DNA from: Candidatus Eiseniibacteriota bacterium
GTDB taxonomy: Bacteria; Orphanbacterota; Orphanbacteria; Orphanbacterales; Orphanbacteraceae
Assembly (NCBI GenBank): GCA_043809585.1
Contig: JBDROZ010000087.1
Coordinates: 1-64,000, forward strand
Direction: 5' to 3'
DNA: 64,000 bases
Part shown: one piece after another, positions 4,456 through 55,357 of the stretch
Numbering within the stretch: the first letter of the stretch is position 1
Layout of the letters: each line of letters starts with the position of its first letter
Notes under the pieces: generated by a model
Told to the model about the DNA's origin: nothing
The model's database searches: none
Seen by the model: the letters and a program-made list of their open reading frames with translations, nothing else
Made by a program: the position numbers and the translations under genes

Positions 4456-5745
<1,290 letters not shown>

Positions 5746-39327: not shown

Positions 39328-41007
39328 ATGGCGATGGTCGAAGCGGTGGTCGGAACGAAGAGGAACTCGGGATCCGTCCCGGAGCACCCGGGGCGTTCTT
39401 TTCGGTGGGAAGTCGCCGCCGTCATCCTCATCGCCCTCCTCGTCCGCCTGCCGAACCTCGGGCATACGCCCTTCGTGGACGAGTTGAACCACGTTCTCGC
39501 GGCGCGCTCCTTCGTCGAGGACGGGGAGATGCGGCTTCCCGGAGGCGGGGGTTACGGGAGGGCCAAGCTCTTCACGCACGCGGTGGCCGCTCTCTTCCGG
39601 ATCTTCGGCGAGAGCCTCGCCGTCGCCCGGATCCCGGCGCTCCTCGCGGGCGTCGCCCTCGTGACGGCGCTCTTCCTCTGGCTGAGGCGAAACGCGGGGG
39701 TTCTGGCCGCCTGGATCGGCGCGCTCCTCTTCTGCTTCTATCCCGAGTCGATCTATCTTTCCCAAATCTCCCGTTTCTACACGTTGCAGGCGCTCTTTCT
39801 CTGGATCGGGGCGACGCAGATCTACCGGATCGCGGAGGACCCCGAGAACCGGGAAACGTGGTTGCGGGCCGGAGCGATCTCGGTCGTGAGTCTGCTTCTG
39901 GCCGTCCATTTTCAGCTTCTCAGTTTGATCGGCGCGGGTTGCGTCGCCGTCTGGGCCGGCGCCGCCCTGGCCCCGTGGATCGGGGCCAAGGCGCGAACCT
40001 CTCCCCGCCCGGCCTTCCTGTTCGCTGCTCTCCTCGCGGCCGCCGCCCTGGTTCTCTTTCTCGCCTGGCGGAGCGGAAGGGTCGCGGGTCTGTGGGATTT
40101 CTACCGCAACCGGGCCGACCTTTGGGCCGCGGGCTCGGGGGACAGCCGCCGGTTCTACCACTGGATCCTCCTCGGCCTTTACCCGACGATTTGGCCCCTC
40201 TTCCCCTTCCTCGCGATCTTCGCCCTTCTCCGGCGGCCGCGGCCCGCGTCGTTTGCCGTGACCGTCTTCGTGCTCGTCTTTCTCATTCAGTCGGGGGCTT
40301 CGTGGAAGGCGGAGCGCTATCTCTTCTACGCCATGCCCTATTTCTTCGGCGCCGTGGGGATCGCCCTCAGTGACCTGATTTCGCTGACGGCCGGCCGGTG
40401 GGCGGAGGGGATCCGGTCGCTCGCCGGCCGCCGCTCCCTTCCGATGCCGGCGGGCCGGATCGCGACGGTACTCGTCGCGGGGGCTTTGCTCATTGCCGCG
40501 CTCTGGAACGACGCCACGCCGATCGCCTGGAAAATGCTCACCGAAGAGGACGCGCGGTGGAACCTCCCCCAAATCTACCGCGGGGAGCCGGACTGGGTGG
40601 CGGCGGAACCGACGGTCCGTCCCTACCTGGACGAAGGAGCCGCCCTCGTCGCCTCGTCCGCGCTCAAGGCCCTCTGGGCGTGGGGCCGGATCGACTACAT
40701 CCTCAGCCGGGACCGGCTGAATGACGTGGGGAGGAAGGGACCGAGAAAGGAGATGGAGAACTGGTGGAAGATCGCCCGTCCGGTCCTCTCCGAAGTCCCC
40801 TCCCTCGAGCGCATCACGGCCGAGCATCCCCTCGGGATCGTCGTGATCGAGCAAGGTTCGTGGAGAAAATCCTGGGGCGTCCCGCCGGCAGTCGCCGATT
40901 GGCTCGATGCGAACCTCCGTCCCCTCCCCTTCGCACCGGAGTGGAGACTCCACGGGTTCTACTGGGATCACCGGGCGGACCGGCCTTCCCCGGCGCCCCG
41001 GTCGTGA
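39328..41007 (+). CDS. GT-C (GT39-like) membrane glycosyltransferase
   Basis: FVDELNH, ARIP, SQISRFY, ERYLFY; many TMs. Confidence 0.82.
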   Translation: MAMVEAVVGTKRNSGSVPEHPGRSFRWEVAAVILIALLVRLPNLGHTPFVDELNHVLAARSFVEDGEMRLPGGGGYGRAKLFTHAVAALFRIFGESLAVARIPALLAGVALVTALFLWLRRNAGVLAAWIGALLFCFYPESIYLSQISRFYTLQALFLWIGATQIYRIAEDPENRETWLRAGAISVVSLLLAVHFQLLSLIGAGCVAVWAGAALAPWIGAKARTSPRPAFLFAALLAAAALVLFLAWRSGRVAGLWDFYRNRADLWAAGSGDSRRFYHWILLGLYPTIWPLFPFLAIFALLRRPRPASFAVTVFVLVFLIQSGASWKAERYLFYAMPYFFGAVGIALSDLISLTAGRWAEGIRSLAGRRSLPMPAGRIATVLVAGALLIAALWNDATPIAWKMLTEEDARWNLPQIYRGEPDWVAAEPTVRPYLDEGAALVASSALKALWAWGRIDYILSRDRLNDVGRKGPRKEMENWWKIARPVLSEVPSLERITAEHPLGIVVIEQGSWRKSWGVPPAVADWLDANLRPLPFAPEWRLHGFYWDHRADRPSPAPRS

Positions 41008-41017
41008 GGGGACGTCC

Positions 41018-42256
41018 ATGACGACGGGCGGGGGGGGAGGACCGGCGATTCCGGAGGTGGGCGTGATCGCCCTGGTGCCCGATCACTGGGGACCCTACTG
41101 GCAGCCCCGGCACTACGTGCTCTCCCTCCTGGCCCGGTTCTTCCGTGTCGTCTGGATGGAGCCGGCCGTCGACGGCCGTTCTTATCTCCTCCGCCGGGCC
41201 TCCGGAGGGGAGTCCCATCCGGTCCCGGCCGGCCTGTCGATTTTCGGCGCCCGCCGCTGGCCTCCGAAGATCTACCGGCCCGCGGCCCTCGCCGCGTGGG
41301 CGGAACGGGCCCGCCTCCGCGCCGCCCGGAGGCGCCTCGAGAGTCTCGGCTGCCGGCGGTTCATCCTCTATGTCTGGCGCCCCCGCTTCGCCTCCGCCCT
41401 CGGCCTCGTCGACCACGACCTCGCCTGCTATCACATCGACGACGAGTACGTCTTCTACGGAAGGGAGAACGCCGAAGAGGCGGCTCACGGCGAGCGGGAA
41501 CTGATGAAGCGGGTGGACCAGGTCTTCATCCACTCCCCCGCCTTGCTCGAGAAGAAGGGGGACGTGAACCCGCGCACGGAGCGGGCGCCGAACGGGGTCG
41601 ACTTCGACGCCTACCGGAAGCCCCGAGAAGAGCCGGAGGACCTGGCGCCGATCCCCCGTCCCCGTATCGGTTACGTGGGATGGCTGAAGCGCCAGCTCGA
41701 CTGGCCGCTGATCGAGAGGCTCGTGGATGCGCGCAAGGAGTGGTCTTTTGTCTTCGTCGGGCCCGCCGCTCCCCACGACGAGGTTCGGGAGAGCGTGGAA
41801 CGGCTCGCCGCCCGGCCCAACGTTCGCTTCCTCGGGGGAAAGCCGGTGGACCAACTTCCCGCCTACTCCCGGCACTTCGACGTCGGCGTCATGCCGTACC
41901 GGTCGGACGAATACACCCGCTACATCTATCCGCTGAAGCTCCACGAATTCCTCGCCACCGGAAACCCCGTCGTGGCGACCCGCATCCGATCCCTTGAGGA
42001 ATTCTCCCGCGTGGTCCTCCTCGCCGAAACGCCGGAGGAGTGGATCGCGGCGATCGAAGCCTCCCTCGAAGGGGCCGGGCCGGGGGCGGAGGAACGCCGC
42101 GCCGCGCGTCTTGAGGTCGCCCGGGAACACGACTGGGGGGTCATCGCCGGGCGGATCGCCGTCACCCTCGCCCGCCGCCTTTCGCCCGAAATCGCCGTCC
42201 GGGCCGAAGAGACCGCGGCGGCGCTCCTCCGGGAGAGGGGGGTGTCGGTTGAGTGA
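41018..42256 (+). CDS. GT4-like glycosyltransferase (TuaH-like)
   Basis: WQPRH, YHIDDE, PNGVD, IGYVG, PLKLHEFLATG.PVV. Confidence 0.88.
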   Translation: MTTGGGGGPAIPEVGVIALVPDHWGPYWQPRHYVLSLLARFFRVVWMEPAVDGRSYLLRRASGGESHPVPAGLSIFGARRWPPKIYRPAALAAWAERARLRAARRRLESLGCRRFILYVWRPRFASALGLVDHDLACYHIDDEYVFYGRENAEEAAHGERELMKRVDQVFIHSPALLEKKGDVNPRTERAPNGVDFDAYRKPREEPEDLAPIPRPRIGYVGWLKRQLDWPLIERLVDARKEWSFVFVGPAAPHDEVRESVERLAARPNVRFLGGKPVDQLPAYSRHFDVGVMPYRSDEYTRYIYPLKLHEFLATGNPVVATRIRSLEEFSRVVLLAETPEEWIAAIEASLEGAGPGAEERRAARLEVAREHDWGVIAGRIAVTLARRLSPEIAVRAEETAAALLRERGVSVE

Positions 42257-43724
42257 AATCGCGCCCCCGCCGGACGGCTCCCGGGATAGCCTCGACCGCT
42301 CCCTGATCCGCGGAATCGCGTGGACCGGCTCGGCGAAGTGGGGGAGCCAGATCGTCACCTGGGCCTCCACGATTCTCGTGGCCCGGATGCTCCTTCCCGA
42401 GCATTACGGCATCGTCGGGATGGCGACCATCTATCTCGGCCTCGTGACTCTGGTCAACGAGTTCGGCTTCGGGATGGCCATCGTCGCCCTCCGGGACCTG
42501 TCGGACCGGCAGGTGGCGCAGCTGAACACGGTGGCGATCCTCTTCGGCCTGATCAGCTTGGGTCTCTCTTTCGCCGCCGCGCCGCTTCTCGCCCTCTTCT
42601 TCCAGACCCCGGAGCTCCGGACGGTGGTGATCGCCATGAGCCTCGGTTTCGTGCTCGGGTCGTTCCGGACCGTGCCCCAGGCGCTCCTCCAGAGAGAGCT
42701 GCGGTTCCCCCGGCTCGCCGTGATCGAGGGGATCCAGGCGGTGCTCCGGGCGCTCACCATGATCGCCCTCGCCGCCGCCGGGTTCGGCTATTGGACGCTC
42801 GTCGTCGGGAACGTCCTCGGCGCCCTTTACTGGACCGGGCTCACCCTTCACTCGCGCCGGCATTCCTACGCCGCGCCGAGATGGGGAGAGATCCGGCCGG
42901 CCCTGCGTTACAGCTGGCACATTCTCGGCGGGCGCATCGGCTGGTACGTCTATTCCCACGCCGACTTCGCCGTGGCGGGACGGATGCTCGGGCAGGCGGC
43001 GCTCGGCGCGTACTCCTTCGCCTGGACCTTGGCGAGCCTTCCGGTGGAGAAGGTGACCGCCATGGTCGGCCGAGTGACGCCGGCGGTCTTCTCCGCCGTC
43101 CAGGAGGATGACGAGTCCCTCCGCCGCTATCTGTCGAACCTGACCGAGGGGCTCGCCTTGATCACCTTCCCCGCGGCGGTCGGCCTCGCCCTCGTGGCGG
43201 ACACGCTGGTCCCCGTCGCTCTCGGCGACCGCTGGCTCGCCGCCGTGGCCCCCCTCCGCCTCCTCGCGGTGTACGCCTCGTTCCGTTCCATCGTGACCCT
43301 TCTCCCCCAAATCCTGAACGTCACCGGCCACTCCCGCTTCGGGATGGGAAACGCCTTCCTCGCCGCCGTGGTGCTCCCCATCGCTTTCATCATCGGCGCC
43401 CGCTACGGGACGACGGGAATCGCCGCGGCTTGGATCGTCGCCCACCCTCTCGTGACGCTGCCGGTCTACTGGCGCGTCTTCACGCGGATCGGCATGCCCA
43501 CGTCCCGGTACCTTCGCGCCCTCTGGCCCGCCATCAGCGCCGTGGCACTCATGGCCACCGTCGTGCTCGCCGTGAAACGGATCGAACCGGCCGGTTGGCC
43601 CGCGGCCGCCCGTCTCGCCGTCGAAGCGGGGAGCGGCGCCGCCGCCTACGCCCTCGCCATCGGCATCATCCACCGTTCCCGGTTCAAGGCGATACGGTCC
43701 AGCCTCCGGCTTCTTCGCCGATGA
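42249..43724 (+). CDS. Wzx-type polysaccharide flippase (MOP superfamily)
   Basis: G..W......Q......LVARML.PE.YG, EFGFG, LQRELRF, D..V.GR.LG...LG.Y..A; about 12-14 TMs. Confidence 0.88.
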   Translation: MSEIAPPPDGSRDSLDRSLIRGIAWTGSAKWGSQIVTWASTILVARMLLPEHYGIVGMATIYLGLVTLVNEFGFGMAIVALRDLSDRQVAQLNTVAILFGLISLGLSFAAAPLLALFFQTPELRTVVIAMSLGFVLGSFRTVPQALLQRELRFPRLAVIEGIQAVLRALTMIALAAAGFGYWTLVVGNVLGALYWTGLTLHSRRHSYAAPRWGEIRPALRYSWHILGGRIGWYVYSHADFAVAGRMLGQAALGAYSFAWTLASLPVEKVTAMVGRVTPAVFSAVQEDDESLRRYLSNLTEGLALITFPAAVGLALVADTLVPVALGDRWLAAVAPLRLLAVYASFRSIVTLLPQILNVTGHSRFGMGNAFLAAVVLPIAFIIGARYGTTGIAAAWIVAHPLVTLPVYWRVFTRIGMPTSRYLRALWPAISAVALMATVVLAVKRIEPAGWPAAARLAVEAGSGAAAYALAIGIIHRSRFKAIRSSLRLLRR

Positions 43725-43832
43725 CCGGTCCGGTGCTCTTTGAGAATTGAAGTCTTTTCTTCATTCCGCCGATTCTCCGCGGTGCAGACCCCGATCGGAG
43801 TGTGGTTCCTGAACCGGCGCAATTTCCCACGG

Positions 43833-43862
43833 TTGACAGGGTTTCCGAGATCGGGTTACAAT
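43833..43862 (+). promoter_or_regulatory. Sigma70-type promoter of the sat/cysC operon
   Basis: TTGACA-18 bp-TACAAT, 55 bp upstream of the RHH gene; downstream TACGAT direct repeats at 43881 and 43893 are a possible operator. Confidence 0.7.
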
Positions 43863-43917
43863 CTTAGACTCTTTATGTAGTACGATCAGTTATACGATTG
43901 GAGCCTGGAGCGCAGAG

Positions 43918-44139
43918 ATGAAAGAGAGCCGAGTCACCATCAAGATCCCCCGGCCCCTCTATCGGAAGATCACACAAGTTATTGATGGGTCTGGCTTTAG
44001 CTCTCCTACGGATTTCATCGTCTATGTCCTCCGCGATCTTGTCGGGGAGCGGAGTGTCCCCGAAGGGCAGGAGGACTTCTCCCAGGACGAGCTCAGGAGC
44101 ATTCGACGGAAGCTGAAGAACCTGGGGTACCTCGAGTAG
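43918..44139 (+). CDS. CopG/ribbon-helix-helix protein with C-terminal LxxLGY tail
   Basis: VTIKIPRPLY..I...I..SGFSS.TDFI.YVLR RHH pattern; ends IRRKLKNLGYLE. Confidence 0.85.
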   Translation: MKESRVTIKIPRPLYRKITQVIDGSGFSSPTDFIVYVLRDLVGERSVPEGQEDFSQDELRSIRRKLKNLGYLE

Positions 44140-44192
44140 CCCCATGCCGGGCGCCGGGGGAGCCCCTCCCGGGAAACCGAAGGGAACACGAC

Positions 44193-45362
44193 ATGATACG
44201 TGCACACGGAGGCAAGCTGGTCCACCGCATCGCCGAAGGCAGAGAGCGGGAGACCCTGATGGAGAAGGTCCCGAACCTGCCGAGGCTGACGCTGAACGAG
44301 CGGGAGACCGCGGACATCGAGATGATCGCCATCGGCGCCATGAGTCCCCTCGAAGGATTCATGACCCGGGAGGACTACATCTCGGTCCTCGACCTGAAGC
44401 GCCTCGGCAAGGGATTGCCCTGGACGATTCCGGTGGTCTTGGCGGTGAAGGAGGGGGACGGCGCCGAATACAAGGAAGGCGGGCAGGTCGCCCTCGTCTC
44501 TCCGGAAGGGGAAGCCCTCGGCGTCATCGACCTGGAGGAGAAGTACCGGGTCGACAAGCGGCAGGAGGCGGAGAAGGTCCTTCTCACCACCGACGAGTCC
44601 CATCCGGGCGTGCAGTACCTGGTCACGACCGGCGACGTCTACCTCGGCGGCGCGATCCACCTTCTCCAACGGCCGAAGCACCACCGGTTCGAGAACTACC
44701 GCCTCGATCCGAAGGAGACGCGGGTCCTCTTCAAGGCGAAGGGATGGGAGACGGTGGTCGCCTTTCAGACCCGGAACCCGATCCACCGGGCCCACGAGTA
44801 TTTGCAGAAATGCGCCCTCGAGATCGTAGACGGACTGCTGGTGCATCCCCTGGTCGGCCAGACCCGGGGCGAGGACATCCCCGCCGAGGTGCGGATGAAG
44901 TGCTACGAGGTCCTCTTCGAGCACTACTACCCGCGCACCCGGACCGCCCTCTCCATCTTCCCGGCGGCCATGCGGTACGCCGGACCCCGGGAGGCGATCT
45001 TCCACGCCCTGGTGCGGAAGAACTACGGCTGCTCCCATTTCATCGTCGGCCGGGACCACGCGGGCGTCGGCAGCTTCTACGGCACCTACGACGCCCACTA
45101 CATCTTCGGCGAGTTCGACCGGTACGAGATCGACATCACGCCCATGTTCTTCGATCACGCCTTCTTCTGCCGGAAGTGCGGGAACATGGCTTCGTCCAAG
45201 ACCTGCTCCCACGAGAGCGCCGACCACGTGTTCCTCAGCGGGACGAAGGTCCGGGAGATGCTCGGGCGGGGCGAGATCCCGCCCGTCGAGTTCACGCGGC
45301 CCGAGGTCGCCGAGATCCTCGTGAAACACTACCAACAGCGCGAGAAGGAGCAGAACGGATGA
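44193..45362 (+). CDS. sat: Sulfate adenylyltransferase (ATP sulfurylase)
   Basis: HGGKL, SPLEGFM, AFQTRNPIHRAHEY, MRYAGPREA, HFIVGRDHAGVG, LSGTKVR. Confidence 0.97.
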   Translation: MIRAHGGKLVHRIAEGRERETLMEKVPNLPRLTLNERETADIEMIAIGAMSPLEGFMTREDYISVLDLKRLGKGLPWTIPVVLAVKEGDGAEYKEGGQVALVSPEGEALGVIDLEEKYRVDKRQEAEKVLLTTDESHPGVQYLVTTGDVYLGGAIHLLQRPKHHRFENYRLDPKETRVLFKAKGWETVVAFQTRNPIHRAHEYLQKCALEIVDGLLVHPLVGQTRGEDIPAEVRMKCYEVLFEHYYPRTRTALSIFPAAMRYAGPREAIFHALVRKNYGCSHFIVGRDHAGVGSFYGTYDAHYIFGEFDRYEIDITPMFFDHAFFCRKCGNMASSKTCSHESADHVFLSGTKVREMLGRGEIPPVEFTRPEVAEILVKHYQQREKEQNG

Positions 45363-46738
45363 GTCGTCTGGCCCTGATCGGACTGGATTGCGCGGCGCCC
45401 AAGCTGATCTTCGACCTGTGGCGCGACGAACTCCCGAACATCAAGTCCGTGATGAGCGAGGGGGTCTACGGGAATCTCCGTTCCACCCTTCCGCCCATCA
45501 CCGTCCCCGCCTGGACGTCGATGATGACCTCGCAGGACCCGGGGCAGCTCGGCTTCTACGGCTTCCGGAACCGGGCGAGCCACGACTACGAGGATCTCTT
45601 CTTCGCGAACGCCAAGTACGTGAAGGCGAAGACGGTGTGGAACTACCTCTCCCGCCAGCGCCTGAACTCGCTCGTCTTCGGCGTCCCCCAGACCTACCCG
45701 CCGAAGCCGCTGAAGGGCGTCATGGTCTCGAGCTTCCTCACGCCGAGCAAGGAAGTGCAGTGGACCCACCCGCGCGAGGCGGCCCGCGAGGTCGACGAAG
45801 CGGCGGGGGGCGACTACATGATCGACGTGAAGGACTTCCGCACCGATGACAAGGATTGGCTCGTGGAGCAGATCTACGAGATGACCAGGCGCCGGTTCGC
45901 CGCGTTCCGTCACTTCGTGAGGAAGAAGGACTTCGACTTCATGATGATGGTGGAGATGGGGATCGACCGGATCCATCACGGCTTCTGGCGCTACTTCGAC
46001 AAGGAGCACCGCCTCTACGAGCCGGGACACCGGTACGAGACAGTCATTCACGACTACTACAAGTTCGTCGACGAGGAACTCGGCAAGCTGCTCAGCGACC
46101 TCCCCATGGACACGTCGGTGATGATAACGTCCGACCACGGCGCCCGGGGGATGGACGGCGCGATCTGCGTCAACGAGTGGCTGATGCGGGAAGGGCTGCT
46201 GAAGCTGAAGAAGAAGCCCGACGGCCCGACGAAGCTGACCATGGACATGGTCGACTGGAAGAAGACGAAGGCGTGGGGCGAAGGGGGCTACTACGCCCGG
46301 ATCTTCATGAACGTGGAGGGCCGGGAGCCGAAAGGGGCCGTCCCCGCGGCGGAATACGAGAGCTTCCGGGACGAACTCAAGGCGATGATCGAGGCGATCC
46401 CCGACGAGAAGGGGGAGCCGATCGGCACCACCGTCTACAAGCCCCAGGATGTGTACAAGGAGGTGAACGGGGTCGCTCCCGACCTCATCACCTTCTTCGG
46501 AGACCTTTCGTGGCGGAGCGCCGGTCTGGTCGGCACGGGCGTGATCCACACTTTCGAGAACGACACGGGCCCGGACGACGCCAATCACGACTGGAACGGG
46601 ATCTTCATCTGGGATCACCCGGCGAAAGTGGAGCCGAAGGTGAAGGACCCCTATTCGATCTACGACATCGCTCCCACGATTCTCCGTTTCTTCGACATCG
46701 ACATACCGGAGCACATGATCGGGGAGCCCCTCTTTTAG
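45359..46738 (+). CDS. Alkaline-phosphatase-superfamily (NPP/type I phosphodiesterase-like) protein 1
   Basis: [43 protein letters not shown] overlap with sat. Confidence 0.9.
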
Positions 46739-46805
46739 GGGAAAGAGGCCCCCTGCCGATGACGGAAGAGAGGAAGCGGAAGGACCCACAAGGAGGAAGG
46801 CTCTC

Positions 46806-47417
46806 ATGAGCGCCAACAAGGGATTCACACTTTGGTTCACGGGGCTCTCGGGCTCCGGAAAGACGACCCTCGCCCGGGCGGTCGAGGAGATCCTCCTCGA
46901 GCGGGGTCTGAACGTGGAGGTCCTCGACGGGGACGTGGTTCGCACGAACCTGTCGAAGGGTCTGGGGTTCTCGAAGGAGGACCGGGACACGAACATCAAG
47001 CGGATCGGCTTCGTCGCCCACCTGCTCTCGCGGAACGGCGTCGTCGCCATCGCCTCGGCGATCAGCCCCTACCGGGAGATCCGGGACTACTGCCGGGAGA
47101 TGATCGGCCGGTTCGTCGAGGTCTACGTGGAGTGCCCCCTCGACACCCTCGAGGAGCGGGACGTGAAGGGGCTCTACAAGAAGGCCCGGGCCGGTGAGAT
47201 CAAGGGATTCACGGGTGTGGACGACCCCTACGAGGCGCCGCTGAAGCCGGAGGTGCTCATCCACTCCGCCGCGGAGAGCGAAGAGGAGAGCGTCCAGAAG
47301 ATCATCCGGACGCTCGAGCTGATGGGCTACATTCCGGGCGCCGACGCCTCCGAGGAGTACACCGAGGAGGAAGAGGAAAAAATCAAGCAGCGGCTCCGCG
47401 ATCTCGGCTATATCTAA
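46806..47417 (+). CDS. cysC: Adenylyl-sulfate (APS) kinase with C-terminal LxxLGY extension
   Basis: [48 protein letters not shown]; tail [16 protein letters not shown]. Confidence 0.96.
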
Positions 47418-47435
47418 ATTCATGGAAGGCGTGAT

Positions 47436-48785
47436 TTGGCGCTGAATTTCCGGAAGAAGAAGAAGGCGGGCCGGAGGGCGTGCGTCTTCGGCATCGACGG
47501 GATGCCTTGCACGCTGCTTTCGGATCTCATGGAACGGGGCGTCATGCCCCGGGCGAAGGAGATTTTCGAGGCCGGGACCCTTCACAAGATGAAGGTGACC
47601 CTTCCCGAGGTCTCCGCGGTCAGCTGGCCGAGCTTCATGACCGGGTCCGACCCGGGGACCCACGGGGTCTACGGCTTCACGGAGTTCGATCCGGGCACCT
47701 ACCGCATCCGTTTCCCGAGCTTTCCCTCGCTCAAGGCTCCCACGCTGTGGGACCGTCTGGGCGAAAAGGGGAGGCGTTCGGTGGTGATCAACCAGCCGTC
47801 GACTTATCCGGCCCGGGAGATTCCGGGGGTGCTGATCTCCGGGTTCGTGGCGGTCGACATGAGAAAGGCGGTGTCGCCGCCGTTTCTGCTGAAGAAGCTC
47901 GAGCAGCTCGATTACGAGATCGACGTGGATTCCCAGAAGGGGGGGAGGGATGCGGACTTCCTCTTCCGGGAGCTCGGCTCGACTCTCCGGGGGCGGGAGA
48001 GGGTGCTCGACTACCTCTGGGAGCGGGAGGATTGGGACCTCTTCGAGATCGTCGTCACCGGCACGGACCGGCTGCAGCACTTCCAGTACGACGCGATCGA
48101 GGACCCGTCCCATCCGAACCATGTCCGCTGTCTCGAGTACTACGAGAAGGTGGACGGGTTCCTCGGGCGGGTGTTCGACCGGTACACGGCGGAGACGGAC
48201 GAAGGCCGAGGCCGCGGAAGGCCGGGCGCGGGTTTCTTCGCCCTGTCGGACCACGGCTTCTGCCGGATCCGCCGGGAGTTCTACCTGAACGCCTGGCTCG
48301 TGAAGGAGGGGTTCCTCTCGTTCCGGTCGAAGGAGCCGAAGTCGTTCGAGGAGGCCCTGCCGTCGTCGAAGGCCATGGGCCTCGACCCGACGAGGATCTA
48401 CCTGAACCGGAAGGACCGCTTCCCGGAGGGGACGGTGCGCGGCGAAGAGATCCCCGAGATCTGCGCCGCCATCAAGGAGAAGGCCCTGGCGGTCGAATTC
48501 GAGGGGGAGAAGGTCTTTCAGGGGGCCTTCCGGCCGGACGAGATCTACACGGGGGCCTGCGTCGCGGAGGCGCCGGACCTGGTGCTCCTCGCGAACGACG
48601 GCTTCGACGTGAAGGGGTGGATGCGGACCGAAGGGGTGTTCGGCAACTCCCACTTCACGGGGATGCACAATTGGGACGACGCCTTCCTCTGGACCCCGGA
48701 GGAGATGCCCGCCGGCTTCGACATCACGAACATCGCCGGCGCGGTGGAGAGGACCCTGCTCGAAGGAGACGGATCGAGTGAGTGA
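47436..48785 (+). CDS. Alkaline-phosphatase-superfamily (NPP-like) protein 2
   Basis: FGIDG, PEVSAVSWPSFMTG, TDRLQHF, SDHGF, GMH. Confidence 0.88.
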   Translation: MALNFRKKKKAGRRACVFGIDGMPCTLLSDLMERGVMPRAKEIFEAGTLHKMKVTLPEVSAVSWPSFMTGSDPGTHGVYGFTEFDPGTYRIRFPSFPSLKAPTLWDRLGEKGRRSVVINQPSTYPAREIPGVLISGFVAVDMRKAVSPPFLLKKLEQLDYEIDVDSQKGGRDADFLFRELGSTLRGRERVLDYLWEREDWDLFEIVVTGTDRLQHFQYDAIEDPSHPNHVRCLEYYEKVDGFLGRVFDRYTAETDEGRGRGRPGAGFFALSDHGFCRIRREFYLNAWLVKEGFLSFRSKEPKSFEEALPSSKAMGLDPTRIYLNRKDRFPEGTVRGEEIPEICAAIKEKALAVEFEGEKVFQGAFRPDEIYTGACVAEAPDLVLLANDGFDVKGWMRTEGVFGNSHFTGMHNWDDAFLWTPEEMPAGFDITNIAGAVERTLLEGDGSSE

Positions 48786-50937
48786 CCGAAGGAAGATGTC
48801 CCGCCTGTGGATCGCCCTGGCGCTGCTCGCCCTGGCCGCGGCGCCGGCCTTCGCCTACATCGGCCCCGGCGCGGGATTCGCCTTCCTCTCTTCCTTCATG
48901 GTCCTCTTCGTGACCTTCCTCCTCGCCGTGGTTTCGATCCTGATCTGGCCGATCCGGGTGGTGATCCGCCTCCTCACCCGCGCGGGGAAGCTGGCGAAGA
49001 CCGACGTGGACCGGGTCATCGTCGTCGGCTACGACGGCCTCGAGCCGAAGCTGGCCCGGAAGTGGATGGACGAGGGGAAGCTGCCGAGCTTCAAGCGCCT
49101 CGCCGACAAGGGGGACTTCCAGCCCCTCTTCTCGTCGTGGCCCTCCATGTCGCCCGTGGCGTGGTCGACCTTCGCCACGAGCACGGACGCGTCGAAGCAC
49201 AACCAGTTCGACTTCCTGAACCGGGACCCGAAGACGTACGTCCCCGATCTGGCGTCGGTGAAGATCACGAACCCGACCCGGTCGATCAAGATCGGCAAGT
49301 ACCGGATCCCTCTCGGCAAGCCGGTGGTGAAGCTGATGCAGCGGTCCACCCCGTTCTGGAAGATCCTCGGAGACCACCACATCTTCTCCCAGATCCTCCG
49401 GGTGCCGATCACGTTCCCGCCGGTCAAGTTCAACGGGGCGCTCCTCTCGGCGATGTGCGTGCCCGATCTCGCGGGGACCCAGGGGACCTTCACCTTCTTC
49501 ACCACCGACGAGGCCGCGGTGAAGGGAGCGACCGGCGGCGTGCGGAAGCCGCTCGTCCGCCGGGGGAACGCGGTGAAGGCGTACATCCCCGGGCCCGCGA
49601 ACAGCATGACCGAGAAGCAGGAGGAACTCCGGATCCCCCTCGAGGTGACGATCGACGACACGAAAGAATTGGCGACGTTCAAGCTCCCCGGCGAGACCTT
49701 CAAGCTCGGCCTGAAGGAGTACTCCCCCTGGAAGAAGGTCGCCTTCAAGCCGGGCCTCGGAATCAAAGTGAACGGCATCGTCCGTTTCTACATCATGTCC
49801 TTCCAGCCCCACTTCGAGCTCTACCTCTCGCCGACCCAGATCGACCCGGAGAAGCCGGCCATGCCGATCTCGGAGCCGGTCTTCTACTCGGTCTACCTGG
49901 CGAAGCTCTTTGGGCCCTATTCGACCCTCGGGCTCGCCGAGGACACGTGGGCCCTGAACGAACGGGTGATCGACGAAGACGCGTTCTTGAAGCAGGTCTG
50001 GATCAATCATGACGAGCGGGAGAAGCAGTTCTTCAACGCCCTGAAACAGACGAAGCGGGGTCTCGTGGCGTGCGTTTTCGACTGCACCGACCGGATTCAG
50101 CACATGTTCTGGCGCTACTTCGATCCGAATCATCCGGCGAACGTGGGGAAAGACGGGGAGATCTACAAGGACGAGATCGAGAAACTCTACGTCCGGATGG
50201 ACGAATTGCTCGGCCGGATCATGAAGGAGTGCGACGACACGCGCACGGTCCTCATGCTCATGTCCGACCACGGTTTCACCGAGTTTTCGCGCGGAATGAA
50301 CCTGAATTCGTGGCTCGTCGAGAACGGCTATATGACGATGCAGAACGGCGACAAGACGTGCCAGGACTGGTTCCGGGGGGTGGACTGGACGAAGACGAAG
50401 GCGTACAGCTTCGGCCTCACCGGCATCTACCTGAACAAGGCCGGGCGCGAGGGGCAGGGGATCGTGGCCGAGGAGGACGCCGTCGCGTTGAAGCGGGAGA
50501 TCGCGGGGAAGCTGAAGGGCTGCCGGGACGAGGAGCGGGGCCGGGTCGCGGTGAGGGACTGTTTGATCGCCGAAGACCTCTTCCACGGACCCTACGTCGA
50601 GAACGGGCCCGACATCTACCCTTGCTTCGACCACGGCTACCGGACGTCGTGGGAGGCGGCGGTCGGGAAAGCGGACGGGAAGGTCTTCCACGACAACGGG
50701 AAGAGCTGGAGCGGCGACCACTGCGTCGACCCGCGGATCGTGCCCGGCGTCTTCTTCTGCAACCGGCGGCTTGCGCGGAAGAAGATCGGCATCGTCGACA
50801 TCGGAGCGTCGGTGCTCGACCTGTTCGGCATCCCGATTCCCCGCCACATGACCGGGCGCTCTTTCTTCCGGGCCGATCCCTCGGAGGAAGCGGCGTCCCC
50901 GGAGGGGGCCGCGGCGAAGGAAACGTCTCGAGGATAG
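48778..50937 (+). CDS. Membrane-anchored alkaline-phosphatase-superfamily (NPP-like) protein 3
   Basis: N-terminal signal/TM (AFAYIGPGAGFAFL...), VGYDG, PSMSPVAWSTF, DRIQHMFW, SDHGF, WSGDH. Confidence 0.88.
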   Translation: MSDRRKMSRLWIALALLALAAAPAFAYIGPGAGFAFLSSFMVLFVTFLLAVVSILIWPIRVVIRLLTRAGKLAKTDVDRVIVVGYDGLEPKLARKWMDEGKLPSFKRLADKGDFQPLFSSWPSMSPVAWSTFATSTDASKHNQFDFLNRDPKTYVPDLASVKITNPTRSIKIGKYRIPLGKPVVKLMQRSTPFWKILGDHHIFSQILRVPITFPPVKFNGALLSAMCVPDLAGTQGTFTFFTTDEAAVKGATGGVRKPLVRRGNAVKAYIPGPANSMTEKQEELRIPLEVTIDDTKELATFKLPGETFKLGLKEYSPWKKVAFKPGLGIKVNGIVRFYIMSFQPHFELYLSPTQIDPEKPAMPISEPVFYSVYLAKLFGPYSTLGLAEDTWALNERVIDEDAFLKQVWINHDEREKQFFNALKQTKRGLVACVFDCTDRIQHMFWRYFDPNHPANVGKDGEIYKDEIEKLYVRMDELLGRIMKECDDTRTVLMLMSDHGFTEFSRGMNLNSWLVENGYMTMQNGDKTCQDWFRGVDWTKTKAYSFGLTGIYLNKAGREGQGIVAEEDAVALKREIAGKLKGCRDEERGRVAVRDCLIAEDLFHGPYVENGPDIYPCFDHGYRTSWEAAVGKADGKVFHDNGKSWSGDHCVDPRIVPGVFFCNRRLARKKIGIVDIGASVLDLFGIPIPRHMTGRSFFRADPSEEAASPEGAAAKETSRG

Positions 50938-50983
50938 CCTTTGGACGAGAGCCCGCGGTAGCGCGGGCCCGGAGGGAGAGAAG

Positions 50984-51175
50984 ATGTTCGGACCGAAGCT
51001 GAAGCTGAGCAAGGACCTGCTCGACAAGATCAAGAAGTACTCGGAGATCGCCGGGTACGCCTCGCCCGAGGAGTTCGCCATTCACGCCCTCGAGAAGGAG
51101 ATCGCGAAGCTCGAGGAGGCGGGGTCGGACGAGGAGATCAAGAAGAAGCTGCAGGGACTCGGCTACATCTCTTAG
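50984..51175 (+). CDS. Small RHH-like protein with C-terminal LxxLGY tail
   Basis: KLKLSKDLLDKIKKY...GYASPEEF..HALE resembles the 43918 RHH; ends EEIKKKLQGLGYIS; GGAGGGAG RBS upstream. Confidence 0.8.
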   Translation: MFGPKLKLSKDLLDKIKKYSEIAGYASPEEFAIHALEKEIAKLEEAGSDEEIKKKLQGLGYIS

Positions 51176-51196
51176 CCGGGGTCGTGCGGTGGGTTT

Positions 51197-51395
51197 CTGC
51201 TGCGGCCGCGGCTCGCGGGCTGCAAGGCGTCGTCTCCATCGCCGCTTCCGGAGCGGGGCCCGTCGGGCGCTTGGACTTATCGCGACGGCTAGGAGCGATA
51301 AGCGGTAGCGCCCGGGGGGAGCAACCTTAGCGAGGACTGCGGTAGCGGGATTCAGGCGGCCTTTCGCCTCGCGATCCACGACCTCGCGACGAACC
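51197..51395. repeat. Palindromic intergenic repeat, related to the 52251-52540 element
   Basis: Shares ctgcggccg..gctcgcgggctgcaag and the end motif cctcgYgacgaa with the element at 52288-52418; internal hairpin ttatcgc/gcgataa. Confidence 0.55.
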
Positions 51396-51445
51396 CCCCC
51401 GCCCTCCCCAGGCTCCCCAGGAACGGCTCGGAAGGAGCAAAGGGC

Positions 51446-52264
51446 ATGTGGACAGTTGTTCACGGTGTAACGGCGGTTTTTGACGGTCTGATCGGCTTGT
51501 TCGACCGGTGGCACCCGATGGTCGGGCTCCTCGTGATCTCGATCATCACGGGCGCCATCATGCTGATCATCTTCCGTTACACGTCGAACCAGGCCGCCAT
51601 CGCCGACACGAAGAACAAGATCAAGGCGTACATTCTGGAGGTCCGCCTCTTCAAGGACGACCTGCCCGCCCAGATGGCCGCCCAGCGTCGGATCCTTTGG
51701 ACGAACTTCAAGTACATACGCTACGCCACGGCGCCCATGCTGGTCATGCTGATCCCGGTGCTCGTGATCCTGATCCAGCTCGACGTCCGTTACGCCCGCC
51801 GGCCCCTCCTGCCCGGCGAGGACACCATCCTCAAGGTGGAGATGGAGAAGGGGACGGACATCTCTTCGCTCCGGTTCGAGCCTCCCGCGGGAATCGTCAG
51901 CGACATGGAGCCGGTCCGGATTCCGGAGCGAAATCAGGTGACCTGGCGGCTCGAGGCCGAAGCGTCCGGCGCCCACGACCTGATCTTCACGAGCGGCGGC
52001 GAGGCCGTCACCAAGAGGCTCGAGGTGGGCGACTACCTCACCAAGCTCGCCGACGAGCGGAAGCACTCGAACGCCTTCGGCGTCTGGGAGAACCCCGCCG
52101 AGCCGCCCCTCCCGAAGGGCTCCGCCTTCCGGTCGATCGTGATCGAGTACCCCGACCGGGACCTCCGGATCTGGGGGTTCGGCATGCACTGGCTCCTCGT
52201 CTTCTTCGCCTCGTCCGTCATCTTCGGTTTCGCGATCAAAGGTTTCGTCGGGGTCGAAGTCTGA
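51446..52264 (+). CDS. Membrane protein, DUF106/EMC3/TMCO1 (Oxa1 superfamily)-like
   Basis: TM1, coiled coil (SNQAAIADTKNKIKA...MAAQRRI), P-containing TM2, soluble insert, terminal TM (HWLLVFF). Confidence 0.55.
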   Translation: MWTVVHGVTAVFDGLIGLFDRWHPMVGLLVISIITGAIMLIIFRYTSNQAAIADTKNKIKAYILEVRLFKDDLPAQMAAQRRILWTNFKYIRYATAPMLVMLIPVLVILIQLDVRYARRPLLPGEDTILKVEMEKGTDISSLRFEPPAGIVSDMEPVRIPERNQVTWRLEAEASGAHDLIFTSGGEAVTKRLEVGDYLTKLADERKHSNAFGVWENPAEPPLPKGSAFRSIVIEYPDRDLRIWGFGMHWLLVFFASSVIFGFAIKGFVGVEV

Positions 52265-52540
52265 CCCGGATTTCGGAGACGTTCCTACTGCGGCCGGCGC
52301 TCGCGGGCTGCAAGCCTTGTTCTCCTTCGTCGCCTCCTCGACGTAGCTAAGGCTACGCCTGCGTCGGCGGCTCGTCCGAGCAAGTCTTTCGCCACGCTCC
52401 GCTCGGCCTCGTGACGAAACCTCTCCGAAACCCGGGTCAGATTCGACCCGAGGAAGGGAACGCCGAACCGCGGGTCACACCGAAGAGGATCGGCCTCGCG
52501 ACGATATCTCTCCGAAAACCGGATCAGACTTCGACCCACG
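52251..52540. repeat. Compound inverted-repeat element overlapping the stop codon of the upstream gene
   Basis: gggtcgaagtctgacccggatttcggagacgtt (52251-52283) has inverted copies at about 52418-52449 and 52506-52537; central hairpin gtagc-taag-gctac. Confidence 0.7.
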
Positions 52541-52581
52541 GAACGGAACACCGAAGCGCTCAGAATGCTCTTCATCTCCCT

Positions 52582-52754
52582 GGCGGGGCGGGGGATCGGT
52601 TGAGGGAGGGATGAGTGGGGCAGATTGGGACGCTCGATCTACTACGGGAGAAAACCCTCCCATTCTCCGGACTCGTAAAGGGGGCGTCGCGAAGAACTCC
52701 GACAGCTCCCCGGTTATGCCCCCCATCCCTCCCGAAGCCGACACCTGTCCCGCC
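52582..52754 (+). repeat. About 170-bp MITE/REP-like element, copy 1
   Basis: Near-identical to 52817-52988 (period 234 bp); TIR ggcggggcgggggatcgg.tgagggaggg. Confidence 0.85.
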
Positions 52755-52816
52755 GATCCCGGTTTCGCCGGTTCCCTCTCAGAAGAGAACGCTGTAAGAC
52801 ACCTGCCTTGCTTTCT

Positions 52817-52988
52817 GCGGGGCGGGAGATCGGGTGAGGGAGGGATGAGTGGGGCAGATTGGGACGCTCGATCTACTACGGGAGAAAACCCTCCCATTCT
52901 CCGGACTCGTAAAGGGGGCGTCGCGAAGAACTTCAACAGCTCCCCGGTTATGCCCCCATCCCTCCCTCACCCGACCGCTCGCCCCGCC
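52817..52988 (+). repeat. About 170-bp MITE/REP-like element, copy 2
   Basis: gcggggcgggagatcgggtgagggaggg ... ccctccctcacccgaccgctcgccccgc terminal inverted repeats. Confidence 0.85.
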
Positions 52989-52996
52989 CCTCCTCG

Positions 52997-55357
52997 TCAC
53001 CTCACGATGACGATCTTCTTCGTGATCTCCCTCTCCACCGTCTTCACCCGCACGAAGTAGACCCCCGCCGCGGCGCGGCGGCCCGAGCGGTCCCGGCCGT
53101 CCCATGCGAGGGCGGCGATGCCGTTCGACGAGGTGAAGTCCGCGTCTTCCATCGACCGAATCTCCCGGCCCGCGACGTCGTAGACACGAAGCGAGACCGG
53201 ACCCGACGCGGGCGGGGCGAAGCGGATGGTGACGGCGCCCGCCGAGGGGTTCGGGTAGGGGGGGAGGGAGGCGACCGAATCGGCCGGCGCGATCGGCGTG
53301 AAAACGCCCGCGAGTTTCGCCGTCAACGCCGCCGAGAGACGGGCCGACTTCTCGAAGAAGGGGAAGTCGAAATTGCCGAGCGTGTCGTTCGACGTGTGCA
53401 GATCGTGGGTCGCGACCTCGAAGTCCTCGTTCACGAGAACCGCCGGGTAGCCGCTCGCCCAGAAAGGCGAGTGGTCGCTGTAGATCATCTCGGGGGCGAC
53501 GAGAAGGGAGCAGGCGAGGTCGGGCGTCGAGAGTTCCCGCACTCCGGGAATCTCGTCCAGGAGCCAGGAGGAAGGCTCGTCGGCGTAGACGATGAGGGGA
53601 CCGTCGGAGCGGCCGATCATGTCGATCTGGACGTCCGCCGCGATCGCCTCGCCCATCGACCCCCGTCCCGTCGCATAGGCGATCGATCCTTGAAGCCCCA
53701 GTTCTTCCCCCGAAAAGAGAAGGAAGCGAATCGTCTTCTCCGCGGGAGCGCCGGAGAGGAGCCGGGCCGTCTCCAGAACCGCCGCGACACCGCTGGCGTC
53801 GTCGTCCGCGCCGGGCGCGTCCGTATACGGGTCGTACATCGGCGGCTGGGCGTACGAGTCATAATGGGCCGACAGGATCACCACGCTGTCCGGATTGACC
53901 CGTCCCGGAATCTCGGCCCCCACGTTCCTCGACCGGTGGGCGACCTCCTCGGGAAGGGGGATTGACGACCAGGAGGCCCCGCCGTCGTCCGACGAAACGA
54001 AGAGCCCGTCCACGCCCCCCGCGACGACGCCGCCCCCCGAACGAATCGCGAGGAAGTCGATGTTCCGGGCGAGGAAGGGGAAAGAGGGGAAGAGAACTTC
54101 CTCCCACGAAAGAAGGGATTCGCCTCCCGTCTCCGCCCGGAAGACCCGGGTGAGTAGAATCGGGTCGTCCAGGCCGGCGATCCAGAGAGCGGAGTCGGGG
54201 GCGAAGGCGACCGTGTATCCCCGGGGGATCGGCGTCGACGCCTGGTTCCAGGCGTTCCCGTCCCAGAGGAGCGCCTTGTTGCCGCTCGAGAGGAGCGCCG
54301 CCCCGAGGGAGGGGCCCGCGAAGGCGATGTCGTAGATGGTCCCGGGCCCGCTGTTCCGGAGGACCCACCCTCCGGTGGGCGTCCAGTGCCAGATCTGCTG
54401 GCTCGCCCCGGCCGCCCACGCGTTCTCTTCGTCCACGTATACCGCATCGTTCAGGGGGCTCGATCCGACGGCCTGCTCGATCCACGTCCCGCCGCCGTCA
54501 TCGGTTCGGTAGACCGCGCCCGATTGAGACGCCGCGATGCCCCGGAGGGAATCGAGGAAATCGATCGCGCTTAGCCGCTTCACGCCGAGGGTGTCCGCCG
54601 CCTCCCACACTCCCCCTTCCTCCCGGAAGACCCGGCCCGAATCGCCGGCGGCGAAGCGGACCCAATTCCCCGCGGCCGCGACGTCGTAGAGCCGGACCGG
54701 GGCGAGGAACTCGGTCTCCCACGTCTGTCCGCCATCCTCCGTGACGAGCACGGCGCCCGTTTCGTCGTGGGAGAGGGCGATCCATCCTCGCGAGACGCCG
54801 GGGGAGAATTCGATTCCCCGGAGGTCCCACTCGGAGAGGGTGTACTCGTGATAGAACGGCTCGTACCCCATCGCCTCGAACCGCCCGAAGAGATAGACGG
54901 CGGCGCTCTCCTGCTCGGCGGTGTACTCGTAGCGGGTGCCGAAGGCGACGAGGTCCTCCACGGTGCGAACGAGGGAGTCGAGATTCGTTCCGGAGGCGAG
55001 CGACGCGGCGAGGGAGTCGGATGCGTCCGACGAGGAACGCTTCGCGACGTGCGGGACCGCCCGCACCGACTCGAGCCTCGCCCGGAGAACCTCACGGTCC
55101 GGGGGAACCGGAGGGACACGATGCTCATTTCGGTCGGGAAAGGAGGCCTCAACCGCCGCCCCTCCAGCAAGATGAGTATCGTGTCCCTCGATTTCGAATT
55201 GAGTATTGTGTCCCCCGAATTCCGCTTGAGTATTGTGTCCCCCGAATTCCGCGCCGAGGATCAGCGGGAGGAGCAGCGGGAGAAGAAGGCCCGGCCTATT
55301 CGACCGGGATTGGGAGGCCGTCCCCGAAGGCGATGGCGCGGTACGCTTTCTCCACAC
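52997..55357 (-). CDS. Secreted M28 Zn-aminopeptidase with inserted BNR/YCF48-like propeller and FlgD-Ig-type C-terminal domain
   Basis: SAHYDS, GADDDASG, FSGEELGL, DMIG, SDH; repeated [TS].DGG.[TS]W boxes; C-terminal PYPNP..RVYDVAGR..WDGRD..G...GVYF; start codon uncertain (GTG 55357). Confidence 0.85.
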   Translation of the reverse strand: MWRKRTAPSPSGTASQSRSNRPGLLLPLLLPLILGAEFGGHNTQAEFGGHNTQFEIEGHDTHLAGGAAVEASFPDRNEHRVPPVPPDREVLRARLESVRAVPHVAKRSSSDASDSLAASLASGTNLDSLVRTVEDLVAFGTRYEYTAEQESAAVYLFGRFEAMGYEPFYHEYTLSEWDLRGIEFSPGVSRGWIALSHDETGAVLVTEDGGQTWETEFLAPVRLYDVAAAGNWVRFAAGDSGRVFREEGGVWEAADTLGVKRLSAIDFLDSLRGIAASQSGAVYRTDDGGGTWIEQAVGSSPLNDAVYVDEENAWAAGASQQIWHWTPTGGWVLRNSGPGTIYDIAFAGPSLGAALLSSGNKALLWDGNAWNQASTPIPRGYTVAFAPDSALWIAGLDDPILLTRVFRAETGGESLLSWEEVLFPSFPFLARNIDFLAIRSGGGVVAGGVDGLFVSSDDGGASWSSIPLPEEVAHRSRNVGAEIPGRVNPDSVVILSAHYDSYAQPPMYDPYTDAPGADDDASGVAAVLETARLLSGAPAEKTIRFLLFSGEELGLQGSIAYATGRGSMGEAIAADVQIDMIGRSDGPLIVYADEPSSWLLDEIPGVRELSTPDLACSLLVAPEMIYSDHSPFWASGYPAVLVNEDFEVATHDLHTSNDTLGNFDFPFFEKSARLSAALTAKLAGVFTPIAPADSVASLPPYPNPSAGAVTIRFAPPASGPVSLRVYDVAGREIRSMEDADFTSSNGIAALAWDGRDRSGRRAAAGVYFVRVKTVEREITKKIVIVR
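55173..55249. repeat. Three 27-bp tandem REP-like units, in frame within the M28 gene
   Basis: tgagtattgtgtcccccgaattc at 55200 and 55227, degenerate copy at 55173; encodes EFGGHNTQA-EFGGHNTQF-EIEGHDTH. Confidence 0.85.

Follow-up and report, generated by a model that had tools for sequence, protein, structure and literature searches.

In Pyrococcus yayanosii and other archaea, genes for a CopG protein, ATP sulfurylase, a DHH-family phosphatase of 3′-phosphoadenosine 5′-phosphate (pAp), a "type I phosphodiesterase/nucleotide pyrophosphatase" and adenosine 5′-phosphosulfate (APS) kinase form a cluster, and it was speculated that its phosphodiesterase-family protein degrades pyrophosphate (PPi; PMC8268124). 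In Thermococcus onnurineus, the names given to TON_1704-1707 are APS kinase, pyrophosphatase, PAP phosphatase and ATP sulfurylase (PMC4463584), and for TON_1705 a pH optimum of 9.5, a kcat of 2.1 per s and a Km of 18.8 µM are tabulated (PMC9653972, Table 1); for this cassette all three sources cite Lee et al. 2009. A locus of the same kind is described here from Candidatus Eiseniibacteriota bacterium (assembly GCA_043809585.1), in a stretch of 64,000 nucleotides (contig JBDROZ010000087.1, positions 1 to 64,000; hereafter the window). Its region 43833-52264 on the + strand contains a promoter-like site followed by eight genes, RHH1, Sat, AP1, CysC, AP2, AP3a, RHH2 and Mem, where RHH stands for ribbon-helix-helix and AP for the alkaline phosphatase superfamily. 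Judged by family names and gene order, RHH1, Sat, AP1 and CysC (module 1) are a bacterial form of the published archaeal cassette that makes 3′-phosphoadenosine 5′-phosphosulfate (PAPS). AP2, AP3a, RHH2 and Mem, together with AP3b, which most genomes add to the set and which here lies outside the window, are a conserved, undescribed module (module 2) that depends on module 1.

As far as the published accounts of the archaeal cassette (TON_1704-1707; PYCH_17520-17560) describe it, both systems cluster a CopG/RHH gene with ATP sulfurylase, a type I phosphodiesterase-family gene and APS kinase, and in both no complete reduction pathway lies nearby. Compared by family name and gene order, they differ in that archaea have the DHH pAp phosphatase, which is not among the eight genes of the operon. 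The explanation as a whole, i.e., the published PAPS cassette joined by a dependent envelope module that uses PAPS, is held here tentatively, with confidence a little short of even. The features on which it is built are the following.

43833..43862, + strand: sigma-70-like promoter, TTGACA-18-TACAAT, ahead of RHH1, proposed from 11/12 consensus matches only.
43918..44139, + strand: RHH1, a 73-residue CopG-type ribbon-helix-helix protein with the tail ..RRKLKNLGYLE, assigned from RHH_1 matches in its family and from its orthologues.
44193..45362, + strand: Sat, ATP sulfurylase of 389 residues (PF01747, 326 bits, plus PUA_2; NF003166, 563 bits, above cut-off).
45359..46738, + strand: AP1, a cytoplasmic 459-residue PF01663 enzyme (151 bits) with the nucleophile Thr48.
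46806..47417, + strand: CysC, APS kinase of 203 residues with a 27-residue C-terminal extension (PF01583, 221 bits).
47352..47414, + strand: the CysC tail, residues 183-203, marked out by its predicted contact with AP1 and its distribution across loci.
47436..48785, + strand: AP2, a cytoplasmic 449-residue PF01663 enzyme (118 bits) with the nucleophile Ser60; its gene opens module 2 and has a TTG start preceded by GGAAGG.
48796 (or 48778, from a GTG start)..50937, + strand: AP3a, a 713-residue PF01663 enzyme (97 bits) with the nucleophile Ser119 and an N-terminal hydrophobic hairpin.
50984..51175, + strand: RHH2, a 63-residue RHH paralogue with the tail ..KKKLQGLGYIS, assigned from RHH_1 matches in its family and from the tail, present in 20/20 orthologues.
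51446..52264, + strand: Mem, a 272-residue membrane protein with an Oxa1/TMCO1/EMC3-like helical core (model with a predicted local distance difference test score, pLDDT, of 90).

The three AP-superfamily proteins all exceed the curated PF01663 cut-off of 23 bits, and each keeps a nucleophile and a set of Asp and His residues, whose roles as metal ligands we take by analogy with nucleotide pyrophosphatases/phosphodiesterases (NPPs). In AP1 the set comprises D10, T48, D203/H207, D259/H260 and H410, the nucleophile motif is ITVPAW and Thr48 is invariant (19/19 sequences). AP2 has the motif VSAVSW, with Ser60 at least 95% conserved (43 sequences) and the metal set D21, D211/H215, D272/H273 and H411, while AP3a has MSPVAW, with Ser119 at least 95% conserved in 16 sequences (three incomplete rows having been dropped) and the metal set D80, D429/H436, D491/H492 and D641/H642. 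By conservation, the nucleophiles proposed when the operon was first noticed, Thr in AP1 and Ser in AP2 and AP3, hold; none of these sites has the C/S-x-P-x-R motif of formylglycine sulfatases.

The best relative of AP1, with 84% identity, comes from a genome named Candidatus Eisenbacteria, and across phyla the identity is 62-68%. When solved PF01663 members were compared with the AP1 model (pLDDT 78.9), the nearest folds were PhnA (1ei6), the Xac NPP (7mw8) and ENPP6, at E 7e-12 to 1e-11, a template-modelling (TM) score of 0.49-0.60 and 14-15% identity. Searched against all PDB sequences, the AP1 profile gave no match at E <= 0.01, and the ESM Atlas returned nothing beyond clusters called "alkaline phosphatase family". 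AP1 and the end of sat share 4 nt, stop codon included, related loci show the same order sat, AP1, cysC, and sat and cysC are each single-copy in the genome (tblastn). Moreover, at least 120 of the 276 longer AP1 homologues are Sat-AP1 fusions (PUA_2, ATP-sulfurylase and Phosphodiest domains; 826-1173 residues; 50-56% identity to AP1). Sat is known to be fused with APS kinase, with inorganic pyrophosphatase or with APS reductase, the Sat-pyrophosphatase fusions being eukaryotic (PMC2275785), and since these partners are varied, fusion alone fits by-product removal and APS use alike. Judged by the archaeal analogy, AP1 is most likely a dedicated pyrophosphatase, a helper of sulfate activation and the hub of a Sat-AP1-CysC complex. 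The original prediction, in which AP1 moved sulfate, is not supported on this point, given the place of AP1 in the published cassette, the naming of TON_1705 as a pyrophosphatase, the Sat fusions and the predicted docking of CysC.

That docking comes from complex prediction. Three runs with AP1 and CysC gave interaction scores (ipSAE) of 0.68, 0.71 and 0.69, whereas none of three controls scored above 0.00. For this mark the calibration stands at 116/157 solved complexes vs. 2/215 mismatched pairs, and it is only rough here, where custom alignments were used. The pLDDT of the partner was 86, and at least 85% of contacts were common to the runs. The modelled interface has two parts: CysC residues 28-36 lie against AP1 91-101 and 117-120, largely invariant AP1 surface residues, and the CysC tail (183-203) meets AP1 47-49, 68-70, 204, 207 and 308-311, the nucleophile and a metal ligand included. 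Within the tail, the predicted contacts are made by residues 183-186, 189-190, 192-194, 196-197 and 199-203; on the AP1 side they involve the invariant K91, W94, N95, S98, R99, R101 and P114-G120 together with the active-site residues T48, R70 and H207. CysC is therefore predicted to dock on AP1 with its tail near the AP1 active site.

The conservation of the operon was followed with one genome per species. A relative of AP1 is encoded in at least 521 genome stretches, of which the 80 best were compared as loci; these belong to Eisenbacteria, Latescibacterota, Krumholzibacteriia, Armatimonadota, Omnitrophota, Poribacteria, Acidobacteriota, Thermodesulfobacteriota, one Patescibacteria-labelled bin, and others. 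Whole copies found by tblastn at these 80 best loci numbered 69 for CysC, 35 for Sat, 38 for RHH1 and about 40 for AP2, and 21 for AP3a, 21 for AP3b, 20 for RHH2 and 19 for Mem. Conservation across genomes was one of the checks proposed with the original prediction, and the operon does recur in many phyla. That it consists of two modules is seen in two genomes with a split set, in which AP2, AP3a, AP3b, RHH2 and Mem share one contig and RHH1, Sat, AP1 and CysC are found elsewhere; in about 20 loci, drawn from several phyla, they stand side by side. Co-occurrence was counted in 201 evenly drawn Armatimonadota genomes, with AP1 scored at E <= 1e-100. Mem was present in 14 and AP1 in 45 of them, and AP1 accompanied Mem in 12/14 genomes, compared with 33/187 genomes without Mem. 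Module 1 often stands alone and module 2 rarely does, the pattern that a consumer of sulfate activation, or an accessory to it, should show. This dependence of module 2 on module 1 at the genome level, and the predicted AP1-CysC docking, are new here.

Flanking genes vary from locus to locus among the best 80, so that the Wzx and glycosyltransferase (GT) neighbourhood described below is local to this genome. A search of the flanks for conserved partners gave none, only occasional sulfatase-like, PHP, radical SAM, epimerase, GT2 and flippase-like genes. Acidobacterial loci (L054, L055, L058, L068, L069, L075, L076, L079, L081) have a cluster form of their own, in which no Mem was found and cysC is followed by a PHP protein, an STM4011-like radical SAM protein and tail-bearing sulfatase-like genes. 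The best NCBIfam match of the PHP protein is 3′,5′-nucleoside bisphosphate phosphatase, at 227 bits (cut-off 400), and such a protein beside cysC would fit the production of PAP.

The N-terminus of AP3a is composed of a signal-like segment, the sequence AYIGPGAGFA (invariant as AYxGPGAGFA), a transmembrane helix and a basic stretch, and because the basic stretch comes after the helix, the catalytic domain would face the cytoplasm. The window lacks AP3b; a 685-residue relative with a twin-arginine (Tat) and lipobox signal is encoded on another contig (C36), and AP3b, given its lipoprotein or Tat signals, should be exported. The RHH fold, which had been called from the letters of the sequence, is supported by Pfam RHH_1 matches to 17/27 aligned members of the RHH1/RHH2 family (best E 3.2e-5); RHH1 of the window itself gave no match, and it is 52-64% identical to its RHH1 orthologues in the family alignment.

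Mem was initially described as DUF106-like, and for this call the sequence offers less than the fold does: EMC3_TMCO1 (PF01956) matched 8/20 members weakly, with a best E of 0.0022, short of the cut-off, and the window copy at E 0.096 and 12.9 bits (cut-off 27.1). The model agrees with the three-helix core and cytosolic coiled coil of the Oxa1 superfamily. Of 48,161 chains, the best structural match (model residues 18-272) was chain 8 of 7tut, a ribosome with multipass translocon, at Z 12.4 and a root-mean-square deviation of 3.3 over 137 aligned residues; when a model is helical, Z values under about 13 may mean just a common arrangement. We presume that this chain is TMCO1. The next match had Z 8.7, and YidC (3wo7) had Z 7.6. 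An immunoglobulin (Ig)-like domain lies between transmembrane helices 2 and 3, and Foldseek with the Mem model matched that domain only. By its model, Mem appears to represent, in bacteria, the TMCO1/EMC3/DUF106 branch of the Oxa1 superfamily, with an Ig-like domain added; bacteria are usually credited with YidC alone in this superfamily.

Which pathway uses the PAPS? Neither PAPS_reduct nor NIR_SIR was matched anywhere in the genome, which is 97.5% complete (AprAB was not searched for), and among 30 other carrier genomes a strong PAPS reductase was present in just 7/30; these results support the view that PAPS of the operon is not made for assimilation. It had been noted at the outset that the window holds neither cysH/cysI nor a P-loop sulfotransferase, and this stands, since none was matched there and the operon proteins gave no match to the sulfotransferase families PF00685, PF13469 and PF03567 at E <= 0.01. 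Among the other carriers, PF00685 was found in 14/30. Nine of the 30 had no strong PAPS reductase and nothing over the cut-off in five sulfotransferase families (PF13469, PF00685, PF03567, PF17784 and PF09037), although two of the nine gave weak matches; these nine include a closed Armatimonadota chromosome.

The 21 C-terminal residues of CysC, a helix that ends in Gly-Tyr, are a second thread that runs through the operon. The tail is kept in 63/68 CysC proteins, in 38/38 RHH1 orthologues and in 20/20 RHH2 orthologues. Where CysC lacks it, AP1 ends in the same acidic linker and tail: both C-termini are readable in 69 loci, and of these 63 have the tail on CysC alone, 5 have it on AP1 alone, 1 has it on neither protein and none has it on both. 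The five loci with the tail on AP1 are mutually related, and one event may account for them. Within the CysC core, the last helix resembles the tail. In the whole genome, 24 open reading frames (ORFs) of at least 60 residues end in L..[LMIV]GY[ILFVM] plus 0-2 residues, and 3 of them are operon proteins. Twenty of the 21 others were scanned (e.g., L093-L112; C115:20433-22448 was left out), and these proved to be 19 AP-superfamily proteins, 15 of the Sulfatase family and 4 of PF01663, and one RadC. Lipoprotein signals or N-terminal membrane domains are present in most of the 19, and no C-x-P-x-R was seen in these proteins at the expected place. Sulfatase-like genes bear the tail in 11 related loci too. 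New here are thus the placement of the tail on CysC or AP1, never on both, and its genome-wide occurrence on AP-superfamily proteins.

We read the tail as a docking peptide for AP-fold domains, carried by the enzyme itself or lent by a partner. That the tail binds Mem was considered and dropped, as three acidobacterial genomes keep tails and no Mem was found in them. A MinD-like membrane-targeting helix and an HbYX motif were set aside on sequence grounds, because the Gly-Tyr is invariant, one or two residues may trail it and exported proteins bear the tail too. A further small ORF with the same tail (..EEIRRRLEELGYL) lies just past AP2 in loci of Armatimonadota and "Hebobacteria" (L025:~11340-11689, L033:~4580-4883, L034:~11370-11719, L035:~11350-11658); it matches neither RHH1 nor RHH2 and may be a third tail-donor family.

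As for the locus itself, all genes named in the original prediction were found on the + strand, as was the promoter, which is a consensus match in DNA of about 65% G+C, where two promoter-like sites fall in the region vs. 0.8 expected from shuffled sequence. The gaps from RHH1 through Sat, AP1, CysC, AP2, AP3a and RHH2 to Mem are 53, -4, 67, 18, 10, 46 and 270 nt. The genes had been described as tightly coupled; the last junction, at 270 nt, is not tight. The genes do lie directly after Wzx and GT genes, as had been stated: a GT1 gene (40907-42256) and a Wzx-type flippase ending at 43724 adjoin them upstream. Also upstream is a PMT_2-like ORF of 1074 residues (window 37795-41019, - strand). 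Mem is bracketed by a 57-nt direct repeat (51193-51249 and 52281-52337, 81% identity; 4 matches in the genome), one copy of which lies inside the unusual 270-nt gap past RHH2; in other genomes the spacer at this place is just short. Downstream, a 141-nt element with terminal inverted repeats is present in two copies that are 97% alike (52583-52723 and 52817-52957); with 49 blastn matches on 31 contigs it is a small dispersed repeat resembling miniature inverted-repeat transposable elements (MITE) or repetitive extragenic palindromes (REP). Rfam gave no riboswitch or other family in 43000-53200, just two weak miRNA-model matches over the 141-nt repeat. An M28 peptidase of 899 residues (52997-55696, - strand) with BNR repeats follows, and its type IX secretion C-terminal sorting domain points to a secretion system of the FCB-group style in this lineage. 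Elsewhere in the genome, at least six further PF01663 paralogues were noted, several of which adjoin GT-C type genes (PMT_2, YfhO, or TMEM260-like with TPR; L085 on C25, L088 on C39, L087 on C13). On contig C42, a T4 gp19-like tail-tube gene (L113:5690-6565) lies about 1 kb from a Sulfotransfer_2 gene; it may be part of a contractile injection system or of what remains of a prophage.

The mechanism that we favour would run as follows. Sat would make APS and PPi; AP1, an NPP-like two-metal enzyme with a Thr nucleophile, would sit between Sat and CysC in a complex and remove the PPi; CysC would dock on AP1, with its helix-Gly-Tyr tail reaching the active-site cleft, and would then make PAPS. Module 2 would draw on this PAPS at the inner membrane and thereby modify a lipid or glycan of the envelope, which is the leading idea for its role. 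In a fitting arrangement AP3a would be the candidate transferase, AP2 would perform a second soluble step or hydrolyse pAp or other nucleotides, and AP3b would act outside the membrane. A bolder form of this scheme can be drawn, in which AP3a, perhaps with AP2, is a PAPS-dependent sulfotransferase of AP fold that sulfates a membrane-bound acceptor on the cytoplasmic face, Mem and AP3b handle the product outside, and the tails of CysC, RHH1 and RHH2 plug AP active sites to assemble and gate the pathway. We regard this form as unlikely, if far from fanciful, and its sub-variant, in which the sulfuryl group would pass from enzyme to enzyme on the invariant tyrosine of the tail, as extremely improbable.

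Several observations weigh against the favoured mechanism. The identification of AP1 as the counterpart of TON_1705 rests on Pfam family name and gene order, and the kcat of TON_1705, which is very low for a pyrophosphatase, suggests that PPi may not be its true substrate. A soluble family I pyrophosphatase was not found in the genome, which has an H+-PPase, nor in 29/30 carrier genomes. The gap is lineage-wide, with the family present in 1/10 genomes of this phylum and also not found in one genome without AP1, so the missing enzyme was dropped as a mark of AP1 carriers and has little weight as specific evidence. Matches to sulfotransferase families do exist in the genome, all on contigs other than that of the window. 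Two classical candidates could use all PAPS, one of 214 residues on C73 (PF13469, 48.5 bits; PF00685, 36 bits) and one on C42 (PF03567, 49.4 bits), with a neighbouring GT2 protein that has a weak PF13469-like stretch; PF13469 genes occur in 17/30 other carriers. The absences counted above are soft, because most genomes are metagenome bins, and two of the five families, PF17784 and PF09037, were matched in no genome, controls included. In 2/14 Mem-bearing Armatimonadota genomes no AP1 was found, and the counted genomes are inter-related, so that the counts overstate independence. The literature search gave nothing relevant on an AP-superfamily sulfotransferase, on COG3379 or on Agl7 as a sulfotransferase, and no chemistry linking an AP-fold Ser/Thr enzyme to sulfuryl transfer from PAPS.

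One may ask whether ordinary chemistry would suffice, with AP1 a pyrophosphatase, AP2 and AP3 tidying nucleotides (pAp, PAPS, APS) or remodelling phosphoesters, classical sulfotransferases taking all PAPS and no sulfate transferred by an AP fold. The sulfotransferase genes on C73, on C42 and in 17/30 carriers fit such a scheme, and the PF01663 enzymes solved so far (PhnA, NPPs, SPAP) are hydrolases. Yet 9/30 carriers have neither a strong PAPS reductase nor a sulfotransferase gene over the cut-off, and a membrane-anchored enzyme, an exported paralogue and a dedicated membrane protein exceed what nucleotide housekeeping needs. AP2 could fill the role of the pAp phosphatase, which the archaeal cassette, as described, has and the bacterial one lacks (PMC8268124), but acidobacterial loci hold AP2 along with a PHP-type candidate for that very activity. 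On balance this scheme is doubtful, though it deserves to be taken seriously. A different alternative detaches module 2 from sulfate: it would transfer or remodel envelope phosphoesters in the manner of phosphoglycerol or phosphoethanolamine transferases and stand near the PAPS cassette through common regulation only. One AP-fold paralogue is indeed exported and one membrane-bound by their signals, several AP paralogues adjoin GT-C glycosyltransferase genes, and at least 19 other exported or membrane AP-superfamily proteins of the genome carry the same tail with no link to PAPS genes. What makes this quite unlikely is that Mem co-occurs with AP1 (12/14 vs. 33/187 genomes) and that the two modules adjoin in about 20 loci of several phyla. 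In addition, AP3a would face the cytoplasm, where the known lipid-donor transferases of the superfamily presumably do not act.

The original prediction proposed an undescribed route in which APS or PAPS would be the source of sulfuryl or nucleotidyl groups and all three enzymes, AP1, AP2 and AP3, would pass these, via covalent Thr/Ser intermediates, to a lipid or glycan. The nucleophile and metal ligands are kept in all three enzymes, AP1 has closer ties with Sat and CysC than a generic pyrophosphatase would require, and the turnover of TON_1705 on PPi is low (PMC9653972, Table 1); moreover, loss of the sulfatase-annotated Agl7 abolishes sulfation of dolichol-phosphate hexose in Haloferax volcanii (PMC3892788). 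Taken in full, the proposal is nevertheless very unlikely, since the archaeal counterpart of AP1 is named a pyrophosphatase in the papers, AP1 is widespread without module 2 or glycan genes (33/45 AP1-bearing Armatimonadota genomes lack Mem), and its 62-68% identity across phyla is more in keeping with a universal small substrate than with a variable acceptor. It was also to be given up if classical sulfotransferases or reductases elsewhere accounted for PAPS use; here, sulfotransferase genes were found on C73 and C42, which goes part of the way towards this, and reductases were not. The AP-fold sulfation route is therefore not supported for AP1 and is conceivable for AP2 and AP3 only, whose module co-occurs with AP1; of the 30 other carrier genomes of the cassette, nine show no other PAPS consumer.

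If module 2 uses PAPS, biological sulfation would have a second enzyme fold, unrelated to the classical one and present across many uncultured phyla, and this would explain the fate of PAPS in genomes without a reductase or classical sulfotransferase. If ordinary chemistry suffices, AP1-type genes ought to be named sulfate-activation pyrophosphatases and not phosphodiesterases, and Mem would still be a bacterial member of the TMCO1/EMC3-like group. The tail, read as a short, portable docking peptide shared by an APS kinase, RHH proteins and many AP-superfamily enzymes, would give a handle on their assembly or switching.

Among known systems, LtaS, EptA/MCR and OpgB are membrane-anchored or exported Ser/Thr two-metal enzymes, which pass a head group to an envelope acceptor via a covalent intermediate and act outside the membrane with lipid donors. 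In contrast, AP3a, which is linked to PAPS genes, appears from its N-terminus to face the cytoplasm. On the sulfate-adding side the sole precedent found is Agl7 (HVO_2046) of Haloferax volcanii, whose deletion leaves dolichol-phosphate-bound hexose or glycan unsulfated; it is annotated as N-acetylgalactosamine-4-sulfatase and predicted to be cytosolic or membrane-bound, with one or two transmembrane helices (PMC3892788, Table S1). Common to both cases is an AP-superfamily protein, which for Agl7 is required genetically for the sulfation of a lipid-linked sugar. Agl7 differs, however, in belonging to the sulfatase family (PF00884 type) and not to PF01663; the evidence is genetic only, and the sections of the source that concern Agl7 report no link to a Sat-CysC cassette. 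Classical bacterial sulfation loci, e.g., sulfated capsule clusters, likewise place PAPS genes beside polysaccharide genes, but as described they use Sulfotransfer_1/2/3 enzymes (PMC11641403, PMC11766843), whereas the operon has no P-loop sulfotransferase and its Wzx/GT neighbourhood is not conserved. The Sat-AP1 fusions are a bacterial parallel of the ATP sulfurylase-inorganic pyrophosphatase fusions of stramenopiles and haptophytes, in that a putative by-product remover is joined to Sat, though the eukaryotic partner is described as an inorganic pyrophosphatase and not as a protein of AP fold (PMC2275785). Compared with the archaeal cassette, finally, the operon has an extra module with genes of the same fold as AP1 (three, counting AP3b), a second RHH protein and a membrane protein.

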